A stretch of 43,650 nucleotides of DNA from an uncultured Candidatus Bathyarchaeia archaeon (GTDB lineage Archaea > Thermoproteota > Bathyarchaeia > Bathyarchaeales > Bathyarchaeaceae). Positions 5,290-11,648 of the stretch are shown here, in pieces; positions within the stretch are counted from its first letter, which is position 1; each line of letters begins with the position of its first letter. The notes under the pieces were generated by a model. It saw only the letters and a list, made by a program, of their open reading frames with translations. It had not been told where the DNA came from and did not search any database. Location: contig CAYFTS010000084.1 in NCBI GenBank assembly GCA_964346135.1, positions 1 through 43,650 on the forward strand, read 5' to 3'. Made by a program: the position numbers and the translations under genes.

Positions 5290-5580
5290 AGCCTTTGCGA
5301 CGTACATGGAGGAGCTAGGAATGACGTAGCGCACAGTTTAGTGCTAATCTTCTAGAAAATTAGCGGTATCTTTTTCACCAAGATTAATTAGGTAATGCAA
5401 CTGCTTGGGCACAAGAACATAAACAACACTTTAATATACACCCAACTCATCAACTTTGAAAGCGATGAATTCCACGTCAGAGTTGCAAAAAACCTTAAGG
5501 AAGACGAAGAACTAATTGAGGCAGGCTTTGAATATGTCACAGAACGAGACGGAGTCAAAATCTACCGAAAGCGAAAGTAA
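5290..5580 (+). pseudogene. decayed tyrosine recombinase/integrase (C-terminal remnant)
   Basis: 5395-5580 encodes MQLLGHKNINNTLIYTQL, the LGH...Y catalytic-Tyr box, plus a C-terminal tail. Upstream integrase-like pieces (FATYMEELG, ISGIFFTKIN) lie in other frames and are broken by stops at 5353 and 5389. No N-terminal domain remains. Confidence 0.6.
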
Positions 5581-7527: not shown

Positions 7528-7547
7528 TGGCGCCCTGGCCGGGATTT
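7528..7547 (-). repeat. orphan intron-less copy of the tRNA-Asp 3' end (positions 57-76 including CCA)
   Basis: The minus strand reads AAATCCCGGCCAGGGCGCCA. This equals tRNA-Asp exon 1 end (10038-10027) joined to exon 2 (9996-9989), 20/20 nt. Confidence 0.85.
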
Positions 7548-9060
7548 ATGAAACGTGTAGTTTCTTATGTAGGGCTCCTGCTAGCGATTCGCCCATCTCT
7601 GTCAGGCTAACTGAATCCTCTCGCAAATTGAAATATCTTGTTTTCGGAGATTGTTTTGCATCTTCGTTTACCCACACTCTTACAGATTCTGGAACTTCTG
7701 ATAATTTGATAGATACCTTACTGTATAAGGTTCTCAAGAAATCAAATCTTTGCCCAACCTCTTCGTTCTGTCTAACAAGTTTTCGTATGCTTCTAGCTGG
7801 AACTCTTCTTACAATTTCTTCTAGGTCAGATGGCTTTATCTCGCCTCCTCTCAATATCATTTTTAGAAATGGAAATCCAAAGTATAGGAAGACCAAGAAC
7901 ACAGCTATTAGGACAATCATCGACACATTGAAAAATGTTCTCCAAGCCATTTTCTCGCTTAAACCGATCCACTCAAGAGTGGGTATGCCAAGAAAAATGA
8001 AAAGAAGCGTAACTACTACAAAAATAGATGAAGTGAGATGTTTTCTTCTAAAGAACAACTCTATTGGGATAAATGGCAATGAAACCACCATTATTGCAGC
8101 AAATAAAACCACAATATCACCTCCCAAACCATGGAAAGTGATGTATACCCAGTTAAGAAAAGGAATGGAGATTTTCAGTAAGGCCAATGAGGTCAAGAAT
8201 CCTATAAAAACCAGAGCTAACCACAAGGGTTCCCACTTTTCTTTACTGTTTAAAGTAGGTTTGTATTCTTTTGAAATGATTGTCGGTGCATATTCGCCGC
8301 GCTTTCCTTCTTCAGGCAGCTTGCCTTTAGGTTCTATTTCTGCAATAGCAGTGCCGAAAATTGAGCCAACTATCTTAATGCTAGAGTAGTTGCCTTCCTC
8401 CAACATAACTCGCAGCGGTTTCTTAGCTCGTTCTGAGGCCAAAAAAATAAGTTCTTGAGCGAGCCAACGCGTTGTCTTTGTCGCTTCATCACTCCTAACT
8501 AGTGCCTCAATGCTTTCTTTTCCTTTTTTGTATGCAATTGAGAATGTGAGTAACAAAAGCAATGCTAAGCCAGTAAAAATCCATGACAAGAATTCTAGAT
8601 TGAGGACCTGAGCAAGAAGAATTCCAAATGGACTAATGATTAGGCCACCGAGGATTAAAAGGTTCTGTGTGCGATTTGGCAGTCTGTACTTTCTCAATAT
8701 TTCGTCCCAATTAGTCTGACACTTGCCACCTATCAGATTGACGACTTTTGTGACGTTCCCAGAATAGAAAAATTGTTGACTGGGGACTTTTTTCGAACCG
8801 ACTATACTCAGCCAGTAAATAGCCTTTGTTAAGTCTGATATTAGTACATCATCAATAGTTCCCTTAACCAGCTTCGACGCGCGTCGAAATTCAAAACAGA
8901 TATAAAGCGAAAAAATTGCAAAATCGCCTACGAACCAAAACAGCGACCATGGAGGTAGGTTTAACATAAAGGGGACAAATAAGGTTACAACCCATAACAT
9001 TATGAAAACGAGCATTCTAGGCAGAAGTTTTCTGTACGTGTAGATAACATCAGCGCCCAT
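7546..9060 (-). CDS. 504-aa polytopic membrane protein, function unknown (element cargo)
   Basis: Long ORF with about 10 hydrophobic helices in two blocks, separated and followed by soluble segments. The stop codon TAA (7546-7548) overlaps the first two nt of the repeat. Confidence 0.7.
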   Translation of the reverse strand: MGADVIYTYRKLLPRMLVFIMLWVVTLFVPFMLNLPPWSLFWFVGDFAIFSLYICFEFRRASKLVKGTIDDVLISDLTKAIYWLSIVGSKKVPSQQFFYSGNVTKVVNLIGGKCQTNWDEILRKYRLPNRTQNLLILGGLIISPFGILLAQVLNLEFLSWIFTGLALLLLLTFSIAYKKGKESIEALVRSDEATKTTRWLAQELIFLASERAKKPLRVMLEEGNYSSIKIVGSIFGTAIAEIEPKGKLPEEGKRGEYAPTIISKEYKPTLNSKEKWEPLWLALVFIGFLTSLALLKISIPFLNWVYITFHGLGGDIVVLFAAIMVVSLPFIPIELFFRRKHLTSSIFVVVTLLFIFLGIPTLEWIGLSEKMAWRTFFNVSMIVLIAVFLVFLYFGFPFLKMILRGGEIKPSDLEEIVRRVPARSIRKLVRQNEEVGQRFDFLRTLYSKVSIKLSEVPESVRVWVNEDAKQSPKTRYFNLREDSVSLTEMGESLAGALHKKLHVS

Positions 9061-9988
9061 ACAACATAATACGCTTCCCGAAGTTTTAATCTTTTCTACA
9101 GAATACTCATATAGCCTTGAAAAATGTCCACAGATTAATGAGAAATCAATTTGGCTAATCTTTCTCCCTTTTCTGAACTAACAAAGCCTACGCTTTTGTA
9201 ATATCTTCCTACATTTGGAGACTTTGATACTGTAAGCACATATGCGCCATCATAAGGACCATTAATCCGAGAAAACATGCCCATCTTGTAAAGTAAGAAT
9301 TTGATTTTCTCCAATCCTGAAAGGTTGACGGATTTGAAGGTTATTTCTTTTTTGCTCTTCGAAACGTGGCCTTCTCCATCTCCAAAGCATCTGATCCATT
9401 CTCTTCTAACATTTAAATCGCCATTCATAATTTCGGAAGGAATAGTCCAGTTGTGGCTATCGTAAGGACCATATCTTAGCAAATCATTAACAACAGCTAC
9501 CCGTCTAATCTCCACTCTTCCTCGTTTATAATCAATCCAAGGTTCATAATCATACACTTGCTTTACATGTTCGGCAAAATCTCTTAAGAGAACAGGATCA
9601 GTATTCCAAAATTCTAAGCCAACACGCCGATAACTCTCAGTTCGACAAGGTTTGCTCGCCTTTCTATTTCCTTCCGCAACTAAATACGCGTGAATCCCTG
9701 CTTTAGCAACACTCATTTCACTTGCATGTGGAGGCAAAGGACGCCTAACGCCCATAAAGCTTCTAGGACCAAGCCAAGCCGTATACCTTACCACGGTTCG
9801 TTTACCTATCCCGAGAACAGAAGCTATCTCAGAATTCGTCATGCCTTTCCGTTTCATATCCTTTGCTTTTTCTATTACTGAACTATGGATTCTCATCTTA
9901 AGATAAGAAAGGCTACATGTATACATAAAACTATGTTCACTTGGCGATGTGGAAAAATACGCGCTCCTATTAGACCCAGGTTCAAGGG
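7548..9988. mobile_element. 2.44-kb insertion bounded by tRNA-Asp 3'-end repeats (integrase-less integrated element)
   Basis: Flanked by the 20-nt direct repeat (7528-7547 versus 9989-9996 plus 10027-10038). Carries only two genes, collinear with the tRNA. No recombinase gene lies inside. Confidence 0.5.
9135..9896 (-). CDS. HTH plus double-LAGLIDADG (homing-endonuclease-like) protein
   Basis: N-terminal HTH (MTNSEIASVLGIGKRTVVRY), then two LAGLIDADG-type motifs (IHAYLVAEGN and WIRCFGDGEGHV). Start set at ATG 9896, because the track start at 10013 runs into the tRNA. Confidence 0.75.
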   Translation of the reverse strand: MRIHSSVIEKAKDMKRKGMTNSEIASVLGIGKRTVVRYTAWLGPRSFMGVRRPLPPHASEMSVAKAGIHAYLVAEGNRKASKPCRTESYRRVGLEFWNTDPVLLRDFAEHVKQVYDYEPWIDYKRGRVEIRRVAVVNDLLRYGPYDSHNWTIPSEIMNGDLNVRREWIRCFGDGEGHVSKSKKEITFKSVNLSGLEKIKFLLYKMGMFSRINGPYDGAYVLTVSKSPNVGRYYKSVGFVSSEKGERLAKLISH

Positions 9989-10096
9989 TGGCGCCCTTCG
10001 GCGGAAAAGACAACTCTTCTTTTCCTTGGCCGGGATTTGAACCCGGGTCGGGCGGGCGACAGCCGCCTATACTAGACCGGACTATACTACCAGGGC
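9989..10096 (-). tRNA. tRNA-Asp (anticodon GTC) with a 30-nt intron at 68/69 and encoded CCA
   Basis: Hand-folded cloverleaf. Acceptor GCCCTGG pairs with CCAGGGC only after 9997-10026 is removed. Anticodon arm is GGCGG-CTGTCGC-CCGCC; T arm is CCGGG-TTCAAAT-CCCGG; discriminator G plus CCA. Confidence 0.85.
9997..10026 (-). other. non-canonical bulge-helix-bulge tRNA intron
   Basis: The intron is AGGAAAAGAAGAGTTGTCTTTTCCGCCGAA. An 8-bp inner helix (GGAAAAGA/TCTTTTCC) is followed by a 3-nt bulge CA|A, a 4-bp helix (exon CGGC with intron GCCG), a 3-nt bulge AA|G, and CC:GG. This gives a 3-4-3 BHB with cleavage exactly at 68|69. Confidence 0.75.
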
Positions 10097-10319
10097 ATCA
10101 GCTTTGTAATTGACAAAACTACTCTACTTAAGTTTTTCATTGGCGTTGCTTTCGAGCTTAACATCACAAAGCGTTTCATACATCAAGATACGCTGTTTCT
10201 CACCATGACAAGCATGCGGACCCAAATTATGAGTATTCGAAGAAAGTTTTGGTCACAACGTGAAGTTCAGATGCATAAGGGCGCCTTGGTATCATGTTTT
10301 TGGAGTTTGGACGACTTTT

Positions 10320-10544: not shown

Positions 10545-11648
10545 TTAGTAGTTCTTTGGTTCTGGATCCCTTATGAGTGACCCGGCTGCACAGTGGATTG
10601 TTCCGCTGTTCCTAGGAAGTACGAGGCTTGAGCATTCCACTTCGACCACTTCGACGCCTATGCTTTCAAGCCATTTCGTAGCTTTGGGATTCCCCTTTGG
10701 CACTAGAATTTTCATGGGTTCAAGGACAACCCCAGTCTCTGGACCTATTTTCTGATCTCGAGTCCAGTAACTGCGACATATTTCGTCTGGAGGTATTATG
10801 AACTTCCAGTCCATTTCCGCCTTCATCCAGTCCACCAAGTACGGGTCCAAGTATTTTGGGTCTTGGACGGCTGTGTGTCTGTCTATCATGACGTAACCTA
10901 GATTGAGTATTCCTAGGCGGCCTCCGTAGCCTGGGAGAATTCTAATATCAACCTCTGGGTCCTGTAACTTCACTATTCTTGCGAGCTGGATGTGACCAAA
11001 CTCATTTGCACGCATAACTTCAGTTTTCCTAGTGTTTGCACGAGGATAGTGTACAGCTATGACCAAGTGTTTCTCATCTAGCCAGGCTATGGTACCTCCC
11101 TCCGTCATGCCATTGCCCACGATCATACCGACAACTGGGCACCCAATTTCTGCGAGAGTCTGATAGGTGGGGGCTTCCTCTCCTTTGCGTATATTATCAT
11201 ACATGCGTAGTATGACTTCGCCGTAGACTGCTGGACGACATACGTCGTCGGTGTATATTGATTTCACTTGGTAGGGTGGGTCGTTTGGATCAGGTTTTCG
11301 AATGACGACTTCTACGCCTTCATCTTTGTAGGCTTTTACGAGATTTTCGTGGTGTTCAATAATCTCGTCCAGGTTGGGCTTTTCTGACATTCTCCAAGCT
11401 GCTAATGAGCTATCGTGGGGAGGCCAAGGCGTGGGTTTGCCAACACTTAAAAACTCTTTGCCAGGACGATGTAACAGCACCATTCTGAGTTTGCCGATGT
11501 TGGTGTTAGCCTTCCATTTCTTGCCCCAATATTTTTTCATTTCATCTTCAAAGTTCGAGAGAATCTGTGGATGATATTTCATGTATTGTTCATGAAGAGT
11601 CAAACCAGTATTTTTCTTAAAAGGGTCTTCCGCTTCTGTCATAAACAT
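10545..11648 (-). CDS. amidinotransferase / arginine deiminase-like (GME superfamily) enzyme
   Basis: 367 aa. The C-terminal NSGTIHCAAGSL motif with its catalytic Cys is typical of the guanidino-group-modifying enzyme fold. Confidence 0.75.
   Translation of the reverse strand: MFMTEAEDPFKKNTGLTLHEQYMKYHPQILSNFEDEMKKYWGKKWKANTNIGKLRMVLLHRPGKEFLSVGKPTPWPPHDSSLAAWRMSEKPNLDEIIEHHENLVKAYKDEGVEVVIRKPDPNDPPYQVKSIYTDDVCRPAVYGEVILRMYDNIRKGEEAPTYQTLAEIGCPVVGMIVGNGMTEGGTIAWLDEKHLVIAVHYPRANTRKTEVMRANEFGHIQLARIVKLQDPEVDIRILPGYGGRLGILNLGYVMIDRHTAVQDPKYLDPYLVDWMKAEMDWKFIIPPDEICRSYWTRDQKIGPETGVVLEPMKILVPKGNPKATKWLESIGVEVVEVECSSLVLPRNSGTIHCAAGSLIRDPEPKNY

Follow-up and report, generated by a model that had tools for sequence, protein, structure and literature searches.

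A bulge-helix-bulge intron in an archaeal tRNA-Asp gene as the probable leading edge of a LAGLIDADG homing cassette

Introduction

The origin of introns at unusual sites in archaeal tRNA genes is an open question, as is the scatter of tRNA fragments in such genomes, and the mechanism by which non-canonical tRNA introns spread or transpose was called unknown in a 2014 review (PMC4090602). The best earlier lead comes from a single locus, the tRNA-Thr(GGU) gene of Caldiarchaeum subterraneum, which was proposed as a model for intron gain via a mobile element (PMC3293823). Here we describe a tRNA-Asp(GTC) gene with a 30-nt bulge-helix-bulge (BHB) intron between positions 68 and 69, together with the LAGLIDADG endonuclease gene that follows it, in a 43,650-nt stretch of DNA (the window, meaning this whole stretch) from the metagenome-assembled genome of a sediment archaeon of the Bathyarchaeia (G000; 2.05 Mb, 246 contigs, 87% complete). 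Other G numbers designate genomes of relatives, and L numbers designate loci.

At this locus, one compact unit combines a BHB intron with a replacement for the tRNA end, an intact endonuclease of homing type and the tRNA end that was displaced; the unit recurs on about a dozen independent contigs. We hold it to be reasonably probable that the intron of the sole tRNA-Asp gene of this genome is the leading edge of a LAGLIDADG homing cassette that replaces the tRNA 3′ end. The arrangement suggests a testable route by which archaeal tRNA genes could acquire introns at odd positions.

Results

The tRNA-Asp gene is interrupted in its 3′ acceptor strand

The tRNA-Asp(GTC) gene occupies positions 10096 to 9989 of the window, on the minus strand, and reads GCCCTGGTAGTATAGTCCGGTCTAGTATAGGCGGCTGTCGCCCGCCCGACCCGGGTTCAAATCCCGGCCA / AGGAAAAGAAGAGTTGTCTTTTCCGCCGAA / GGGCGCCA (exon 1, insert and exon 2). 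Exon 1 (10027-10096, positions 1-68) is 70 nt long, ends in AAATCCCGGCCA and equals the first 70 nt of the intron-less tRNA-Asp genes of relatives G030 and G056. The 30-nt insert (9997-10026) separates it from exon 2 (9989-9996), which supplies G69-C72, the discriminator G73 and an encoded CCA. We compared this gene with its homologs in a set of 13 loci, all with an insert of 30-32 nt at the identical site; exon 2, as well as the exon letters flanking the insert, was invariant in 13 of 13.

A reading of this DNA from sequence alone had proposed a tRNA-Asp with an intron at 68/69, mismatched at two acceptor positions until nucleotides 9997-10026 are removed, and had anticipated that gene finders would mis-call it. 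The anatomy proved to be as it described. The unspliced acceptor stem contains two mismatches, G1/A72 and C4/A69, and the Rfam tRNA model, scoring the unspliced gene at 44.5 bits, marks precisely pairs 1:72 and 4:69 as non-standard. Removal of the insert restores a perfect 7-bp acceptor stem, the discriminator G and CCA, and the predicted 78-nt spliced product is letter-identical to the tRNA-Asp of G030 and G056, whose uninterrupted sequence scores 56.9 bits; it differs from the tRNA-Asp of 26 other relatives at one to six positions. ARAGORN called a mismatched tRNA-Asp(GTC) form at 10021-10097, with CCAAGGA as its acceptor strand, and its intron mode did not find the acceptor intron in G000; in relatives, it mislabels intron-bearing tRNA-Asp genes as Leu, Gly or Phe. 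Since the spliced product exactly matches an orthologous mature sequence and 12 further loci carry an insert at the same site, chance is excluded. All available sequence-level tests agree with the predicted BHB intron at 68/69, and the initial interpretation is supported.

A conserved box, ATGAAAAACTTAAGTAGAG, lies upstream of the gene (10122-10140, minus strand) and likewise upstream of the tRNA-Asp genes of relatives (for example L035, L038, L041 and L064); from its sequence, it is likely the promoter of the tRNA-Asp gene, with a TFB-recognition element (BRE) and a TATA box. Further upstream, between tRNA-Asp and tRNA-Lys, the window contains an open reading frame (ORF) for a 367-aa amidinotransferase/arginine-deiminase-like protein (10545-11648, minus strand); in G030 and G024 the two tRNA genes are within about 500 bases of one another.

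Covariation supports the bulge-helix-bulge motif

From 5′ to 3′, the predicted motif comprises C61-C62, C63-C66, the bulge C67 A68/A, the hairpin, the intron sequence GCCG and the bulge A A/G69. The outer helix consists of pairs C61:G71 and C62:G70, the 4-bp central helix pairs C63-C66 with GCCG, and the inner helix is an 8-bp hairpin formed by GGAAAAGA and UCUUUUCC; the two bulges, of 3 nt each, lie on opposite strands. Arrangement and cut position are those of the canonical intron in the anticodon loop, and the free-energy minimum of the 108-nt precursor includes the central helix, the 5′ bulge and the hairpin. In the alignment of the 13 loci, all 182 cells of the 14 modelled pairs are standard pairs, and three pairs of the inner hairpin have changed on both sides, among GC, AU and GU types, while its loop varies freely. 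Sliding the partners by one to three columns, as a control, reduced pairing to 45-66%. Cleavage exactly at 68/69, as first proposed, is predicted by the geometry of the motif, although a cut at 67/68 would yield the identical product and the sequence by itself fits both.

The intron forms the edge of a unit with an endonuclease gene and a displaced tRNA end

An intact, free-standing gene of 253 codons (9135-9896, minus strand) starts with an ATG at 9896, 93 nt downstream of the tRNA-Asp CCA. Its product contains an N-terminal helix-turn-helix (HTH) followed by a LAGLIDADG_3 domain (Pfam, 9e-10), and it is the sole LAGLIDADG_3 gene of G000. The two LAGLIDADG motifs appear as ...AYLVAEGN... and ...RCFGDGEG...; in 18 of 18 sequences E175 is invariant and the acidic residue of motif 1 is E or D. 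The enzyme profile matches the PI-PfuI intein endonuclease (3.5e-8), and a Foldseek search with the AlphaFold2 (AF2) model (pLDDT 87) retrieved the intein endonucleases TliVMA and PI-PfuI (1e-10 to 1e-11), as well as I-DmoI, for which the target-normalized TM score was about 0.75; WhiA ranked 35th among the structural matches. From the model, the best reading of the protein is a single-chain, I-DmoI-like LAGLIDADG homing endonuclease, which would cleave DNA. Among nine enzyme copies, pairwise ratios of non-synonymous to synonymous substitution (dN/dS) ranged from 0.08 to 0.15 where dS was unsaturated, indicating that the enzyme is maintained by purifying selection. About 25-34 nt upstream of the start codon lies a TATA-like box, TTTTATGTAT (9921-9930, minus strand), in a region conserved among the window, G017 and L064; from its sequence, we infer that it is the promoter of the endonuclease gene.

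Beyond the enzyme gene, an intron-less orphan copy of tRNA-Asp positions 57-76, AAATCCCGGCCAGGGCGCCA, marks the far end of the insertion (7528-7547, minus strand). It matches at 20 of 20 positions, with a chance expectation of 8e-8. The cassette spans about 2.5 kb, from 10026 to 7528, with the intron as its leading edge. The order of the unit is positions 57-68, intron, positions 69-76, trailer, promoter, endonuclease gene and optional cargo, followed by the 20-bp duplication of the tRNA end. The cargo of the window is a 504-aa ORF without any family match (7546-9060, minus strand), whose stop codon overlaps the orphan and which is absent from minimal cassettes.

The orphan was found downstream of the enzyme gene in all eight distinct loci with enough sequence (the window, L064, L065, L068, L070, L073, L083 and L084), always with its left boundary at about position 57. 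In L065/66, L073/74 and L083/85 it overlaps or abuts the stop codon of the enzyme gene, the sole gene there, and in L068 it lies 60 nt past that stop; in the window, L064, L070 and L084 it lies beyond cargo genes, which include a 236-aa ORF followed by MazE and PIN genes in L064 (with two orphans) and a BglII-like gene, among others, in L070. The endonuclease is thus the only constant gene of the cassette, and no integrase or recombinase domain was found in the cargo ORFs of the window, L064, L065, L068 and L070. Six of nine distinct orphans carry one or two substitutions, and the interrupted copy is invariant in 13 of 13 loci.

On the 206-kb carrier contig of L064 (L064:4845-5590), a degenerate and a perfect orphan tRNA-Asp end flank the MazE/PIN toxin-antitoxin pair, and this pairing of orphans suggests, at the level of sequence, that cargo grew stepwise. 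A giant intron ending at the orphan was considered and rejected: the orphan is without the GCCGAA context for a second bulge, the proximal GGGCGCCA is invariant, and the orphans are decaying. On the other side of the orphan, the window contains a relic of the C-terminal part of a tyrosine recombinase (5392-5580, plus strand; LLGHKNINNTLIYTQ...; PF00589, E=0.044) that overlaps the start of a polyferredoxin gene; it is situated 2 kb beyond the orphan, with two host-type genes between.

The cassette is patchily distributed and found in several states

For distribution within the order, we used 301 species genomes for the enzyme gene and 401 genomes for the insert pattern. An intact enzyme gene was present in only one of the 301, G000 itself, and a relic with the first 76 codons in G017; the remaining matches were all inteins. 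A large protein database contained 19 relatives of the enzyme at 60-82% identity, and a metagenome scan with the enzyme alignment gave 11 loci; the same scan of a collection of species genomes gave no match. Every relative's contig that reaches upstream (L064, L065/66/67, L068, L069, L070, L073/74, L077, L078, L079, L083/85 and L084) has a tRNA-Asp(GTC) with the 68/69 insert directly before the enzyme gene. The tRNA-Asp genes of the carriers have no other intron, one in the D-loop, one at the variable-loop/T-stem (V/T) site, or both, and their anticodon-stem variants recur among intron-less relatives; these differences indicate that the carriers belong to several host lineages.

The 68/69 intron itself occurs in three of the 401 genomes, G000, G017 and G064; the pattern scan matched the first two only, the insert of G064 being outside its gap range. 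G017 contains a decayed copy (87.5% identity over 385 nt) that retains T arm, intron, exon 2, trailer, promoter and 76 codons, shows a compensatory change in the hairpin and is detached from any complete tRNA. G064, a locus further to the 13, has a tRNA-Asp gene (L159:728-890, G064:C157) with three introns, in the D-loop, at the V/T site and, with 28 nt, at 68/69; it keeps the trailer motif, and no enzyme gene was found downstream of it, nor any orphan. Under the homing-cycle model (PMC1654191), invasion is expected to be followed by decay of the enzyme gene, with the intron persisting; the decay in G017 and the intron without enzyme in G064 match this course. Upstream of the same tRNA-Asp, G064 carries a decayed copy of a second endonuclease family (see below).

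In G017, three pieces of tRNA-Asp lie within 5 kb (G017:C1:18235-23644; L031, L032 and L033): one 5′ fragment that stops in the anticodon, one intact gene on the opposite strand, and the 3′ relic that bears the 68/69 intron; a gene for an 802-aa SMC/AAA-type ATPase lies among them. By its sequence, the tRNA-Asp locus is an apparent target of repeated insertion. We rejected a split tRNA as explanation of these pieces: the 5′ piece ends at the anticodon, the 3′ relic starts at position 45, and an intact tRNA-Asp lies between.

The assembled genome has a single tRNA-Asp and two EndA paralogs

The sequence-only reading had also asked whether this is the only tRNA-Asp of the genome. It is the sole copy in the assembly (87% complete), in which neither ARAGORN nor the Rfam tRNA model nor BLAST with the gene found a second. 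G000 encodes two paralogs of the splicing endonuclease EndA (PF01974). One, of 185 aa, resembles the catalytic subunits known from Sulfolobus tokodaii and Aeropyrum pernix (2cv8 and 3p1z_B; about 1e-40); the other, of 202 aa, is more distant and, by eye, shows no obvious catalytic His in the corresponding segment. Only the heterotetrameric and epsilon2 types of EndA cut non-canonical introns (PMC5829648), and the two differing subunits of G000, as judged by sequence, fit the heterotetrameric type. The tRNA-Asp genes of relatives carry up to three introns each, in the D-loop, the anticodon or the variable-loop/T-stem region, indicating that such introns are routine in this group.

ARAGORN and Rfam together left Glu, His, Met, Phe, Trp and Tyr without a tRNA in the assembly of G000, which is 87% complete, and several Rfam tRNA matches (C120, C168 and C165) are partial; further intron-broken tRNA genes may be hidden there. 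Standard finders mis-call the essential tRNA-Asp, so genomes of this group may be scored as missing tRNAs that are actually present.

A trailer motif may favour the splicing fold

A conserved motif, GAACCTGGGTC, is located in the 3′ trailer (9973-9983, minus strand); its letters resemble the 5′ strand of the T arm, GACCCGGGTTC, to which they are also complementary. GAACCYGGGTC, or a close variant, occurs 4-11 nt past the CCA in 12 of 13 loci, and RNAalifold pairs the trailer with the T-arm 5′ strand GACCCGGGUUC in 10-12 of 12 sequences. For the precursor with 34 nt of trailer, the BHB-enforced fold reached -49.4 kcal/mol as compared with -39.4 for the cloverleaf-enforced fold, and without the trailer the values were -30.5 and -33.5 kcal/mol, respectively. 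In silico, the trailer thus favours the BHB over the cloverleaf by about 10 kcal/mol, and by these models it may keep the T stem's 5′ strand occupied, leaving the 3′ strand to form the BHB.

Other endonuclease genes adjoin intron-bearing tRNA genes

A second, unrelated family of HTH-LAGLIDADG genes, present in 11 of the 301 genomes (loci L061 and L152-L155 here), lies beside Bathyarchaeia tRNA-Asp genes with a V/T intron (GGAC/ATCA...GAG/CCGGG). Its member in G017 (L061:10069-10821, equal to G017:C1:22071-22820, minus strand) abuts the intact tRNA-Asp, which has the V/T intron. The four closest relatives of this member, in G233, G049, G216 and G231, each precede a tRNA-Asp carrying that V/T intron by about 85-95 nt, and G233 contains an intron-less orphan of the tRNA 3′ part 1.1 kb downstream; remoter relatives adjoin tRNA-Ala, -Val, -Pro and -Leu.

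At 31% identity to the enzyme studied here, its relative P0021 (L071:853-985 and 1065-1682; L072) follows a tRNA-Asn(GTT)-like gene with an insert in the anticodon region and another of about 19 nt in the T loop; a GIY-YIG ORF comes next, and no orphan tRNA-Asn end was found within 3 kb after P0021. Both the second family and P0021 with its tRNA-Asn hint at cassettes of this general kind beyond the tRNA-Asp locus of the window.

Discussion

A proposed homing cassette that replaces a tRNA end

What we observed is the anatomy of the unit, its conservation and covariation, a linkage that joins intron, enzyme gene and orphan, and an enzyme kept under purifying selection; from these we infer a mechanism with splicing in vivo, cleavage of DNA, a cleavage target and a direction of transfer. 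The endonuclease would cut the uninterrupted T-arm/acceptor DNA of a naive tRNA-Asp gene, and repair from the cassette-bearing allele would copy the whole unit in. The cassette would bring a replacement tRNA 3′ end, and the original, intron-less end (positions 57-76) would be displaced to the far side. In the carrier, the target would be broken twice, and the allele would be immune because the intron at 68/69 interrupts the target in the working copy and the orphan is without its left part. In the transcript, the trailer may help by pairing with the 5′ strand of the T stem, freeing the 3′ strand for the BHB; EndA would cleave both 3-nt bulges behind their second nucleotide, after which ...CCA would be ligated to GGGCGCCA by an RNA ligase, with tRNA-Asp staying functional.

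More broadly, and tentatively, LAGLIDADG homing cassettes that target tRNA genes might be a common source of non-canonical archaeal tRNA introns, which would serve them as a means of immunity; this generalization, which the second HTH-LAGLIDADG family and P0021 support, we find possible but rather doubtful at present. In general, a naive tRNA gene would be cut by such a cassette and receive from it a replacement end with a BHB intron that breaks the DNA target and is spliced from the RNA, in the present case with a trailer that would refold the pre-tRNA so that the BHB is exposed; once the enzyme gene decays, the intron and scattered tRNA fragments would persist.

Several observations weigh against the homing cassette at tRNA-Asp. 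For the RNA, the outer BHB helix has only two pairs, both invariant, and competes with the T stem (a relaxed form of the motif), and the central and outer helices occupy the 3′ strand of the T stem, making BHB and cloverleaf mutually exclusive. Consequently, the textbook 3-4-3 motif of the sequence-only reading was an overstatement in these two respects, although its geometry, bulges and 8-bp inner helix stand. No compensatory double changes were seen in the trailer, whose motif, the T-arm sequence being palindromic, could equally be a degenerated copy of the T arm or a site bound by a protein. For the DNA, no empty and filled sites were found in otherwise identical flanks; synteny of the window with G030 and G024 covers the 5′ side of the tRNA only, so they provide no clean before/after pair. 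Divergence among the enzyme genes is about that among host genera, which is compatible with vertical descent and many losses. Furthermore, an intact 20-bp orphan resides in the same genome, and the immunity argument needs a target extending beyond it. Finally, direct repeats of 20 bp whose boundary is constant are also a classic sign that an integrase has mediated insertion at a tRNA gene, and the small tyrosine-recombinase relic lies 2 kb away.

Alternative explanations

These last two points lead to the main rival, a small integrative element inserted into the tRNA-Asp 3′ end by site-specific recombination, with the repeats as attL and attR, the intron as a feature of the attP copy and the LAGLIDADG gene as a passenger; the integrase would have been supplied in trans or since lost. 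Archaeal viruses and plasmids integrate into tRNA-Asp leaving such repeats (PMC4090602, PMC3293823), and both the direct repeats of positions 57-76, with the same left boundary in all loci, and the recombinase relic at 5392-5580 would fit. However, the cargo ORFs of five loci contain no integrase domain, two host-type genes separate the relic from the cassette, and the LAGLIDADG gene, under strong purifying selection, is the one constant gene and even the sole ORF between the repeats in L065, L073 and L083. We thus regard an integrative element as an unlikely source of this arrangement.

Strong purifying selection, which extends across saturated synonymous divergence, would also be expected of a domesticated LAGLIDADG protein, acting as a WhiA-like DNA-binding regulator or as a helper in the folding or splicing of pre-tRNA after an old, vertically inherited insertion. 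Its N-terminal HTH, the presence of WhiA among the structural matches and a conserved palindromic motif upstream of the enzyme promoter, possibly an operator, point in the same direction. The acidic residues on which LAGLIDADG nucleases rely for catalysis are nevertheless conserved here in both motifs, and WhiA is not known to have them. The best matches, both structural and by sequence, are active homing endonucleases; moreover, occurrence is very patchy (the copy in G017 has decayed, and G064 has lost the gene), and carriers differ in their intron backgrounds. Domestication consequently seems improbable to us.

That the insert is not removed, and that the tRNA-Asp is inactivated with a working copy in the unassembled 13% of the genome, agrees with an 87%-complete assembly in 246 contigs and with the many tRNA species missing from the ARAGORN list, but is very improbable given that all 13 loci keep the interrupted copy unchanged while orphans are decaying, that compensatory changes preserve the intron helix, that cutting at the BHB sites restores the exact orthologous tRNA, that the upstream promoter box is retained, and that the approximately 6.7 kb read of the 206-kb carrier contig L064 contains no second tRNA-Asp.

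Comparison with known systems

In our literature search, which did not cover subscription journals, no paper turned up that describes linkage between a BHB intron of a tRNA and a LAGLIDADG gene outside it. The closest known systems each share a part of the arrangement proposed here. Non-canonical BHB introns in tRNAs of Thermoproteales and other Thermoproteota (PMC4090602, PMC4033280) are likewise short, lie outside 37/38 and have BHB junctions; there, too, hosts have two EndA subunit genes, and relatives carry several introns per tRNA. Unlike them, the intron of the window is in the 3′ acceptor strand and is linked to an endonuclease gene and an orphan tRNA end.

The BHB introns of archaeal rRNA that encode LAGLIDADG enzymes, such as I-DmoI (PDB 1b24, 2vs7), also combine a BHB intron with a single-chain, double-LAGLIDADG enzyme of about 200 aa, which the AF2 model matches as described above. 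In the window, by contrast, the enzyme gene is outside the 30-nt intron, past the tRNA end and behind a promoter-like box of its own, the enzyme has an additional N-terminal HTH, and the target is duplicated over 20 bp.

Collaborative homing in phages, described for the psbA group I intron with F-CphI (PMC6083498) and for T4 mobE with the I-TevIII intron (PMC2790892), is similar in that an intron with no ORF of its own moves along with the free-standing endonuclease gene next to it, and in that the intron is proposed to shield the carrier allele from cleavage, as it would here. Co-inheritance is evident in our set as well: all loci of the gene with upstream sequence carry the intron, and G064 has the intron without the gene. 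Unlike in phages, the intron is a BHB intron that would be spliced by proteins rather than by itself, the host gene is an archaeal tRNA, and the cassette, known from sequence alone, adds a replacement gene end and leaves an orphan.

Integrase elements of the SSV and pNOB8 types share the direct repeats of a tRNA end at both borders, whereas no tyrosine or serine recombinase was found in the five loci analysed here. Lastly, the tRNA-Thr(GGU) locus of Caldiarchaeum (Sugahara et al. 2012, PMC3293823) also presents an insertion bordered by directly repeated tRNA sequence, an enzyme gene that adjoins the tRNA and shares its strand, and one more non-canonical intron in the tRNA as rebuilt. Its repeat is a 5′ fragment and its enzyme a putative recombinase of pNOB8-like origin, whereas the tRNA-Asp unit has a repeat of the 3′ end and a LAGLIDADG endonuclease, and it is present on about 12 independent contigs.

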